Assembly (NCBI RefSeq): GCF_024298765.1
Contig: NZ_CP101210.1
Reading direction: 5' to 3' (one strand)
Source of the DNA: Escherichia coli
Lineage (GTDB): Bacteria > Pseudomonadota > Gammaproteobacteria > Enterobacterales > Enterobacteriaceae
DNA: 64,000 nt
Shown: positions 38,442-44,750 of the stretch, one piece after another
How the letters are laid out: every line of letters begins with the position of its first letter
Numbering within the stretch: position 1 is the stretch's first letter
Translations under genes and position numbers: made by a program
Notes under the pieces: generated by a model
What the model was told of the DNA's origin: nothing
Seen by the model: only the letters and a program-made list of their open reading frames with translations
Database searches by the model: none

Positions 38442-38798
38442 TTAACAAAGCCGCTCCAGATCGTGTGCATATAATTCAGCGGCTACCGATTGATAGATCT
38501 TCCAGTCAATAAAATTGCCATCAGGGTAGACTTGTTGAAACGCGGTTAAGTCGGGGAAAAAACGCATGGTGTTGTTGCCGATGCGGTTATTTATTTTCTC
38601 TATGATGGCATGAAGATGTTTTTTTCTTTGCTGACGCATAGCCAACAGTTGCTCGACTACACGATCAGGAATGGCGTATTTGCCATTTTCCCATTGACGC
38701 CAGCTTTCACTGTCACCGGTCTGGGCAATCCAGGTCGCGCATTCATCAATAGTCATGGCAAAAATATGGCGGAGTGCCTGGAGTTCATAAGCGTTCAT
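38442..38798 (-). CDS. ydiL: Uncharacterized protein YdiL (118 aa)
   Basis: MNAYELQALRHIFAMTIDECATWIAQ...; start set at the internal ATG (38798). Confidence 0.78.
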   Translation of the reverse strand: MNAYELQALRHIFAMTIDECATWIAQTGDSESWRQWENGKYAIPDRVVEQLLAMRQQRKKHLHAIIEKINNRIGNNTMRFFPDLTAFQQVYPDGNFIDWKIYQSVAAELYAHDLERLC

Positions 38799-38936
38799 CG
38801 TGTAATGGCTGCATGAAATAAACAATAAAATATAAATAACATTATCAGCCTGCTGACGGCTTGAAGAGAGTCACAGTATCTTGTGCAACATTATTGGAAA
38901 GCGTGAGGGGCGAGGTAGCGAAGCGGAAAAATGTTA

Positions 38937-39043
38937 AAAAAAAGCCCATCGTGGGAGATGGGCAAAGACTACACACAGCAATTCGTTGTTTCACTCAGGG
39001 GATTTCCATGCTTATAAATCAATATGTTGATTTATAACCGTGA
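38937..39043 (-). ncRNA. rprA: RprA small RNA (RpoS translational activator)
   Basis: Minus-strand reads ACGGUUAUAAAUCAACAUAUUGAUUUAUAAGCAUGGAAAUCCCCUGAGUGAAACAACGAAUUGCUGUGUGUAGUCUUUGCCCAUCUCCCACGAUGGGCUUUUUUUU, which matches RprA as I recall it, including the terminal hairpin and U-tract; lies between ydiL and ydiK. Confidence 0.88.
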
Positions 39044-39226
39044 GCTAATAGTAGGCATACGGACTTTTTGCGTCGATCAGATTCGTCTCATTAGTTTAAA
39101 AACTGTAAAGAATTTGCGACAGGTACTACCAGCTGAATGGCGGTAAGCAGGAAAATATGGGGAAGAGCAAGCAAATATCAATTAGCAGGGGTTAACAATC
39201 AGGCGGCAGAGCCGCCTGATGAGAAA

Positions 39227-40339
39227 TTACTTATTCGGTTTCTCGATTTCGCCAAGTTCTTCGAGAATTTCTTCCGGTTGGTCCGTCGGCGGCGGGACTT
39301 CTTCCACCCACGCGGCAAACAGACGCCAGGAAACGGCTAACAGAACCGGACCAATAAACAGACCGATCATCCCGAAAGCAATCAAACCACCAATAACGCC
39401 AGAGAGGATCAGGATCAGCGGTAAATCGGCACCCATGCGAATTAACATTGGGCGGATGACGTTATCCAGCGTGCCAACCACACCGCTCCACACTAACAAT
39501 ACCGTTCCCCAGGTGGTATCGCCGGTCCAGTAGAGCCAGATAATCGCCGGAATCAGTACCGGCAATGGGCCAAGCTGGACAAGGCAGGAGAGGATCATTA
39601 ACACCGTGAGCAACGTTGCATAAGGTACGCCGGATACGGCGAGGCCGATACCGCCAAGCACAGCCTGTACTAACGCCGTCACCACCACACCCAGCGCCAC
39701 CGCGCGGATAGCCTGTGCCGCCAGCAGTACGGCGGCATCTCCGCGAACGCCTGCCAGACGGGTTGCAAAATGGCGAATGCCTTGTGCCACCTGTTCACCG
39801 CGCCAGTACAGCAGGGCGCTGAAGAGAAGCATCAGCGCACAATGCACCATAAAGCGCCCGATATGCGCCGCCTGCCCAACGAACCAGGTGGTGGTGGTGC
39901 CAATATAAGGACGGACTTTCGCCATGATCGCCGTCCCCCCCATATCCAGCAAATTGTGCCAGCCTGCATATAGCTTCGCGCCAATCACCGGAATGGTATT
40001 AAGCCACGCCAGATCGGGTAACGTCATGTCACCACTGGAAATGGCTTTAATTAGCGGGCCGCTGCCGTCGACGATACTGTTAACCAGCAAAGCAATAGGG
40101 ATGATAAACACCATCACTAATAACAGCGTCATCACCAGAACGGCGAGAGAGCGGCGACCAAACATGATCTTTTGCAAACGTAACAATACCGGCCAGGTGG
40201 CGATAACCACTGTACCGGCCCATGCAAAGCCGAGAATAAAGGGTTGTACAATCCACAGACATGCCACAATCATGATGGCTAAAAACAGCACCGAAAGCAG
40301 AATTTGTGCGACATCCCTGGGCTGACGAACATTTACCAT
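39227..40339 (-). CDS. ydiK: AI-2E/UPF0118-family membrane transporter YdiK (370 aa)
   Basis: Polytopic membrane protein; matches YdiK. Confidence 0.88.
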   Translation of the reverse strand: MVNVRQPRDVAQILLSVLFLAIMIVACLWIVQPFILGFAWAGTVVIATWPVLLRLQKIMFGRRSLAVLVMTLLLVMVFIIPIALLVNSIVDGSGPLIKAISSGDMTLPDLAWLNTIPVIGAKLYAGWHNLLDMGGTAIMAKVRPYIGTTTTWFVGQAAHIGRFMVHCALMLLFSALLYWRGEQVAQGIRHFATRLAGVRGDAAVLLAAQAIRAVALGVVVTALVQAVLGGIGLAVSGVPYATLLTVLMILSCLVQLGPLPVLIPAIIWLYWTGDTTWGTVLLVWSGVVGTLDNVIRPMLIRMGADLPLILILSGVIGGLIAFGMIGLFIGPVLLAVSWRLFAAWVEEVPPPTDQPEEILEELGEIEKPNK

Positions 40340-44479: not shown

Positions 44480-44702
44480 TCCTGACTTAATGCCGCAATT
44501 TTGCCAAATCGACCTGGATTAACCTCCGTCCAGGTTCGATGACCTTCTTAATACTGCTTATCTATCCGCCTGATATTGTTCAAAAATAATACTAATCGCA
44601 GTTTGTGTTAAAACGGCGGGTTAGCTTTATGAGATTATTCTTATCGCCCCTTCAAGAGCTAAGCCACTGAGAGTGCCGGAGATAAGCGCCGGATGGGGTA
44701 GA

Positions 44703-44750
44703 AACCCTTAAGCCTGTGTCGCACAGACTTAAGGGTTTTCTTATTTCTGA
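44703..44750 (+). terminator. Strong Rho-independent terminator; possibly the 3' end of the RydB sRNA
   Basis: Long hairpin AACCCTTAAGcctgtgtcgcacagaCTTAAGGGTT followed by TTCTTATTTCT; the ydiH-sufA intergenic region is where RydB maps in E. coli, but I cannot recall the RydB sequence well enough to confirm. Confidence 0.4.

Follow-up and report, generated by a model that had tools for sequence, protein, structure and literature searches.

The question that this locus raises is whether the short spacer between ydiK and ydiL is empty sequence or houses a gene of its own. A first-pass annotation had placed the small RNA RprA on the minus strand here, cautioning that the spacer could be mistaken for an empty one, and had named an Rfam covariance-model search as the way to check the proposal. 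Such a search of the window (the whole 64,000-nucleotide stretch of Escherichia coli DNA analyzed here) passed this check, with a full-length match to the RprA family RF00034 (model positions 1-108 of 108) at 38934-39041 on the minus strand, at 118.5 bits, far above the gathering score of 70 (E = 1.6e-16 over the whole 64-kb window); the same family was again the sole strong match when the ydiK-ydiL spacer was searched alone with permissive filters. The rprA gene of K-12 MG1655 (b4431, 106 nt) maps to 38936-39041 with 106 of 106 positions identical (100%), and 100%-identical E. coli genomes carry the RefSeq annotation “antisense sRNA RprA” at the corresponding position. Given that the spacer as a whole differs from that of K-12 at just 3 of 428 positions, the match is not due to chance.

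On this combined evidence (the RF00034 match, the identity to b4431 and the annotation in identical genomes), we place the rprA gene at 38936-39041 on the minus strand, with transcription starting at the A in position 39041 and the 3′ end falling inside the U-tract; the Rfam and PGAP calls extend to 38934 (38934-39041). The location given earlier, 38937-39043, was right, whereas its ends were off by 1-2 nt on each side. Two mechanically called ORFs overlap the gene (38845-38994, minus strand, and 38861-39037, plus strand), with no hint of coding. Because every defining feature of RprA that is open to computational examination is present, membership in the family follows, and the segment 38936-39041 (minus strand) is, judging from its sequence, almost certainly E. 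coli rprA, encoding the ~105-nt Hfq-dependent, trans-acting sRNA RprA. This is an already known gene, and what is known about RprA is unchanged; the significance for the window is that of correct annotation, namely, that the spacer houses a regulator tying envelope stress (the Rcs system) to RpoS and biofilm matrix genes.

The spacer occupies 38799-39226 and is 428 bp long; thus, the earlier description of a 430-bp region between ydiL and ydiK had the place right and the exact length slightly wrong. It is collinear with the K-12 spacer, with no insertion, and identical to it at 425 of the 428 positions, the differences being at 39189, 39187 and 38902. Upstream of rprA lies ydiK, an AI-2E family transporter gene (39227-40339, minus strand; NCBIfam equivalog NF008216, 687.6 bits), and downstream lies ydiL (38442-38798, minus strand), both outside the sRNA. 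The identity of ydiL rests on the RefSeq annotation of NZ_CP029164.1 (100% identity to the window across the 1.3 kb compared), because NCBIfam includes no YdiL model. The farther neighbors in the window are ydiM, ydiN and ydiJ, and the K-12 order ydiJ, ydiK, rprA, ydiL, ydiM is inverted in the window. A perfect 10-bp inverted repeat, ATCAGGCGGC-TCT-GCCGCCTGAT, begins 7 nt past the ydiK stop codon (39198-39220, minus strand) and is not followed by a U-tract; it is possibly a 3′ stabilizer of the ydiK mRNA or a weak terminator. Some variation beside rprA is seen within the species. A record named E. coli SCPM-O-B-8794 combines a 99%-identical ydiK with an RprA that carries 1 substitution; the sequence immediately after the U-tract differs, and ydiL was not detected within 1.5 kb downstream of rprA. 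In addition, coverage of the 1.3-kb ydiK-rprA-ydiL segment falls below 80% in about 40 of 5424 E. coli genomes. These cases suggest occasional rearrangement or insertion next to rprA.

This arrangement brings up the reading under which the conserved element is a cis-acting part of a neighboring mRNA, either the 3′ UTR of ydiK with its terminator or a leader (attenuator) of ydiL. The element is encoded on the same strand as both neighbors, 185 nt downstream of the ydiK stop codon, ydiK is found upstream of it throughout the Enterobacterales, and the lack of a U-tract after the 39220-39198 hairpin makes some read-through from ydiK conceivable. Nevertheless, the element has the promoter geometry of an independent transcription unit. 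A putative -10 hexamer, TACTAT (4 of 6 consensus positions), lies at 39053-39048 (-12 to -7, a canonical position with respect to the annotated K-12 5′ end), and a putative -35 hexamer, TCGACG (also 4 of 6), lies at 39076-39071, 17 nt from the -10 element; both were read by eye on the minus strand and placed by hand from the annotated 5′ end. The -35 hexamer abuts an RcsB box, TGAGACGAATCTGA, at 39090-39077 of the minus strand (-49 to -36 relative to 39041), which exactly matches the consensus TN(G/A)GAN4TC(T/C)NA derived from RcsB-DNA crystal structures and constitutes the core of the Salmonella PrprA 23-mer that was crystallized with RcsB (PMC7913699). The predicted box is thus located just upstream of -35, as expected from sequence for an RcsB-dependent promoter. 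A scan of the spacer with the sigma-70 consensus missed the rprA promoter, the sole promoter-like matches being upstream and unrelated (39181-39152); weak 4/6 hexamers that escape such a scan are what is expected of an activator-dependent promoter.

The box is conserved along with the gene. Of 116 Enterobacterales loci, 112 have a match to the RcsB-box consensus upstream of the RprA core, compared to a chance expectation of about 0.007 per locus per strand (in 120 nt), and transcription of rprA has been reported to be strictly RcsB-dependent (PMC6298664). Both facts argue against a mere extension of the ydiK mRNA. Among the loci scanned, only two that retain ydiK lack the box: Edwardsiella ictaluri and E. 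hoshinae have the RprA core and the ydiK synteny, yet show no upstream match to the consensus.

At its other end, the gene is closed by a strong Rho-independent terminator (38936-38963, minus strand; RprA nt 79-98 followed by U8) that ends 135 nt before ydiL, which again speaks for a separate transcript. The terminator consists of a stem-loop with a 7-bp GC-rich stem and a 6-nt loop (GCCCATC-TCCCAC-GATGGGC, 38963-38944), followed by the U8 tract TTTTTTTT at 38943-38936, bearing out the terminal GC-rich hairpin and U-tract noted in the first-pass annotation. No other terminator-like site occurs in the spacer, for which shuffled sequences would lead one to expect 0.3. The U-tract is presumed to be the Hfq-binding 3′ end of the RNA; Hfq binds U-rich 3′ tails of sRNAs and is required for the stability and action of RprA (PMC4152358).

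In the predicted fold (the minimum free energy and centroid structures), a 5′ stem-loop (RprA nt 3-32; 39010-39039, minus strand) is followed by a mostly open middle portion and the terminator. This fold is modestly better than those of shuffled sequences (z = -1.99), as is commonly seen in sRNAs whose seed is long and unstructured; because the single-sequence z-score is modest, we relied on comparative evidence. The structure predicted for the window's own sequence was tested on a MAFFT alignment of 59 RprA sequences, in which 89.6% of the cells are paired, compared to 30-48% after sliding the partners by 1-3 columns. The two helices of the 5′ stem-loop (helices 1 and 2) are 86-89% paired and the terminator helix (helix 4) is 99.8% paired. 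Five pairs are changed on both sides, 3 in the 5′ hairpin and 2 in the terminator helix; this particular count was reached in 35 of 500 shuffles, whereas none of the 500 matched the paired fraction, the number of double-change cells, the number of pair types or the covariation score. The 5′ hairpin and the 3′ Rho-independent terminator are, accordingly, supported by covariation.

Of 5426 complete E. coli genomes, 5421 carry the 108-nt rprA segment at ≥99% identity. With such near-invariance within the species, selection and recency cannot be told apart from the E. coli data alone, and one might argue that the copy in the window looks intact merely through recent common ancestry with K-12 while being silent or non-functional. 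Wider comparisons are relevant here. The 21-mer TTGCTGTGTGTAGTCTTTGCC (RprA nt 61-81) is found as an exact match in at least 120 species-representative genomes across the Enterobacterales, including members of Escherichia, Citrobacter, Enterobacter, Pantoea, Erwinia and Serratia as well as Yersinia, Dickeya, Proteus, Providencia, Photorhabdus and Edwardsiella. In the 59-sequence alignment, columns A59-C81 are invariant, but for nt 61-81 this invariance arises by construction, the sequences having been fetched with that very 21-mer; the informative part is the breadth of taxa that carry the exact 21-mer. The core, the terminator pairing, the RcsB box and the synteny all persist across genera in which YdiK is only 53-90% identical, which is indicative of purifying selection, and neither the gene nor the promoter in the window carries any mutation with respect to the functional K-12 allele. 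We therefore regard a silent or non-functional copy as highly unlikely.

The same comparison settles the relationship with the neighbors. Of the 120 loci listed, 108 have ydiK upstream of the 21-mer, on the same strand and at a distance of 250-990 nt; in 10 of the 12 loci without it, the sequence available upstream is shorter than 400 nt. By contrast, ydiL is found downstream in only 8 of the 120, these being loci of Escherichia albertii and Citrobacter. The location expected of RprA, downstream of ydiK and in the same orientation, is thus observed in the window and in most of the loci listed. RprA is tied to ydiK rather than to ydiL, which is absent downstream in the other 112 listed loci, so a ydiL leader is ruled out; together with the promoter, the box and the terminator, this makes a cis-acting part of either neighboring mRNA very improbable. 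The spacer that might have been taken for empty contains a separate gene, rprA.

With this identity in hand, the regions of RprA that contact its targets can be delineated in the window. The target-pairing region (RprA nt 34-72; 38970-39008, minus strand), defined from predicted duplexes and published sites, comprises the regions for the rpoS leader, csgD site II and dgcM (ydaM), and the invariant core AATTGCTGTGTGTAGTCTTTGCC (RprA nt 59-81; 38961-38983, minus strand) includes the anti-csgD site Ib and the U-rich stretch beside the terminator. Because both rpoS and csgD lie outside the window, the K-12 leaders were used, and RprA nt 28-78 were compared with sliding 40-nt target windows; whole-molecule RNAduplex predictions against 230-nt leaders were dropped as they gave unrealistic end-to-end pairings with huge loops. 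With the K-12 rpoS leader (-134 to -95), nt 34-72 form a predicted duplex of -30.5 kcal/mol, which none of 100 shuffles equaled, and with the K-12 csgD leader, the pairing of nt 61-74 with -97 to -84 anchors a duplex that is also predicted at -30.5 kcal/mol, with 1 of 100 shuffles as good. Both predictions agree with the published sites; those reported for RprA are csgD sites Ia/Ib (nt 60-97), csgD site II (nt 28-45) and the dgcM/ydaM site (nt 45-75) (PMC3465796).

A discrete, ~105-nt, Hfq-bound and Rcs-induced RprA has been reported for K-12 (PMC3465796, PMC6298664, PMC4152358), and the copy in the window would be expected to be expressed, to bind Hfq and to be regulated in the same manner in this strain. 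By the route described in the literature, envelope stress would activate the RcsC/RcsD/RcsB phosphorelay, and an RcsB homodimer bound to the box at -49 to -36 would switch on the otherwise weak rprA promoter. Together with Hfq, RprA would then base-pair with the inhibitory hairpin of the rpoS 5′ leader, on its upstream arm, freeing the ribosome-binding site and raising RpoS translation; this leader arm otherwise sequesters the Shine-Dalgarno sequence, hence an anti-antisense mechanism (PMC3465796; PMC4152358). The middle portion and the 3′ core would pair with the csgD and dgcM (ydaM) mRNAs, lowering the production of curli and cellulose, and a processed 3′ fragment (nt 60-105) would probably retain the repression of csgD, given that processed RprA60-105 is sufficient for it in the published work (PMC3465796; PMC4152358). 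How much the rpoS arm matters physiologically is under debate, as rprA knockouts barely alter RpoS levels (PMC3465796; PMC4152358).

Outside the window, the 3′ portion of RprA also occurs on mobile elements. Searches of IMG/VR with the exact 21-mer detected at least 120 phage or prophage contigs in which the RprA core (TTGCTGTGTGTAGTCTT) is coupled to a terminator but the RprA 5′ half is missing. The possibility that these are host flanks carrying a true rprA was rejected because, among the matches listed, none of the 120 viral contigs contains the RprA 5′ half or ydiK. Nor is the RcsB box conserved: its consensus is present in 9 of the 120 phage loci listed. The same core occurs in at least 36 different upstream contexts and with many different terminator stems. 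In 96 of the 120 loci among the matches listed, a gene for a CI/LexA-type repressor (HTH plus Peptidase_S24) is located 231-1652 nt upstream on the same strand, and no counter-example to this arrangement was found among the 120 loci listed, 100 of which have at least 1.5 kb of upstream sequence. The core without the 5′ half is present in Escherichia and Salmonella phages and on an E. coli phage-plasmid, and the core is also found in lytic N4-like Erwinia phages, directly after the thymidylate synthase gene. In addition, second chromosomal copies of the core in a prophage context were detected in Phytobacter massiliensis and Enterobacter wuhouensis.

A second ascertainment, through the repressor gene rather than the 21-mer, yielded 80 loci, of which 46 have the sequence (A/T)TGCTGTGTGTAGTC(T/C)T directly before a terminator; 15 of these carry an RprA-like terminator, and the other 31 have a variant core, in most cases followed by a long GGCGGTACCAG...CTGGTACCGCC hairpin. 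No Rfam family covers the phage modules at the gathering score, the matches being limited to sub-threshold ones to STnc100, DicF and RprA: the structured 5′ domain of the phage element resembles STnc100 (RF02076; 42.9 bits, just below the gathering score of 47), and some of the long 3′ hairpins weakly resemble DicF (19.4 bits, E = 0.075). In a 2026 preprint, STnc100 and PasD are presented as prophage sRNAs that are related but differ in their seeds; RprA is not mentioned there. We found no description of RprA-like phage sRNAs in the literature searched, which is not proof of novelty.

The observations on the phage modules show sequence sharing with RprA and a conserved position. The core with its terminator could form the 3′ end of an RNA transcribed from the lysogenic (repressor) side of these phages and, as such, could act as an sRNA with the RprA seed. 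Going further, we tentatively entertain the possibility, which we deem less likely than not, that the core (UUGCUGUGUGUAGUCUU plus the terminator, encompassing the anti-csgD site) serves on temperate enterobacterial phages as a seed sRNA directed at the RprA regulon of the host, and that RprA and this class of phage elements share or exchange a seed-terminator module. Were lysogens to express such modules as sRNAs that bind Hfq, prophages would gain access to a part of the host's RprA regulon (csgD, and perhaps dgcM, curli and biofilm) free of Rcs control; if functional, they would be a case of prophages copying the seed of a core-genome sRNA.

The alternative for the phage modules is a recombination or attachment patch, and in its host-side version, the 3′ core and terminator of rprA would double as a site at which mobile elements land or find homology, be it a phage att site or a patch for recombination. 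Phytobacter massiliensis (NZ_HE578945.1) provides one such case: a full rprA next to ydiK is accompanied by a copy of nt 37-108 about 8 kb downstream, with a lambda-type tail tape-measure gene in between, and this pair resembles the att-type duplication that an element would leave on integrating in the 3′ part of rprA; an attP reading may apply to this genome. Also in line with a landing site are the 9 extra copies of the RprA core among E. coli genomes, the many phages that carry the core, and the presence of RprA among the ncRNA models screened by Phage_Finder (PMC12540744). In the window, however, nothing is inserted and the spacer is collinear with that of K-12, and the phage modules are internal and adjacent to the repressor gene, with no integrase among the neighboring ORFs scanned with Pfam in representatives, unlike a classical attP. 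The internal position next to the repressor and the lack of an integrase among the ORFs scanned also led us to reject attP as the general explanation of the phage copies. Overall, we consider it improbable that the rprA 3′ end is also a site of this kind.

Some plasmid records also contain rprA. In PLSDB, near full-length copies (98% identity) are found in Klebsiella pneumoniae records labeled “non-mobilizable plasmid,” of 110-144 kb plus one of ~1 Mb, and several E. coli “plasmid” records with rprA are 4.8-4.9 Mb in size, evidently chromosomes. These records may be mislabeled or chimeric, or else represent chromosomal segments captured on plasmids.

Several other RNA features were identified in the window, on the plus strand and above the respective Rfam gathering scores: the rydB sRNA (44646-44706, 81.6 bits), the phenylalanine leader (the pheST leader; 10135-10259, 74.4 bits) and STnc540 (14100-14258, 67.4 bits). 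Two tandem tRNA-Val(GAC) genes are located at 57769-57845 and 57850-57926 on the minus strand. A match to the Rfam “HPnc0260 antisense RNA” family (57645-57807, plus strand, 112.1 bits) overlaps the first of these on the opposite strand; because its best-aligned part is complementary to the tRNA, the match probably arises from the tRNA and does not mark a genuine sRNA.

Among known systems, the closest is RprA of K-12 itself (b4431; RF00034), with which the window shares an identical gene, promoter, RcsB box, terminator and ydiK-rprA-ydiL context, the sole difference being the three spacer substitutions (39189, 39187, 38902) outside the gene and promoter. Like RprA, the sRNAs DsrA and ArcZ pair, with the assistance of Hfq, with the upstream arm of the inhibitory rpoS leader hairpin (PMC4152358). 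The three RNAs differ in that their sequences, loci and inducing signals are unrelated, and neither DsrA nor ArcZ is present in the window at the Rfam gathering score. DsrA is induced by cold, and ArcZ responds to ArcAB and oxygen. The third point of comparison is with prophage sRNAs of the STnc100/PasD/DicF type, of which the subset located downstream of a CI-type repressor carries the RprA core, (U/A)UGCUGUGUGUAGUCUU, right before the terminator; compared to RprA, these elements lack the 5′ hairpin, the rpoS-pairing region and the ydiK neighborhood, and they belong to phage immunity regions, outside the window.
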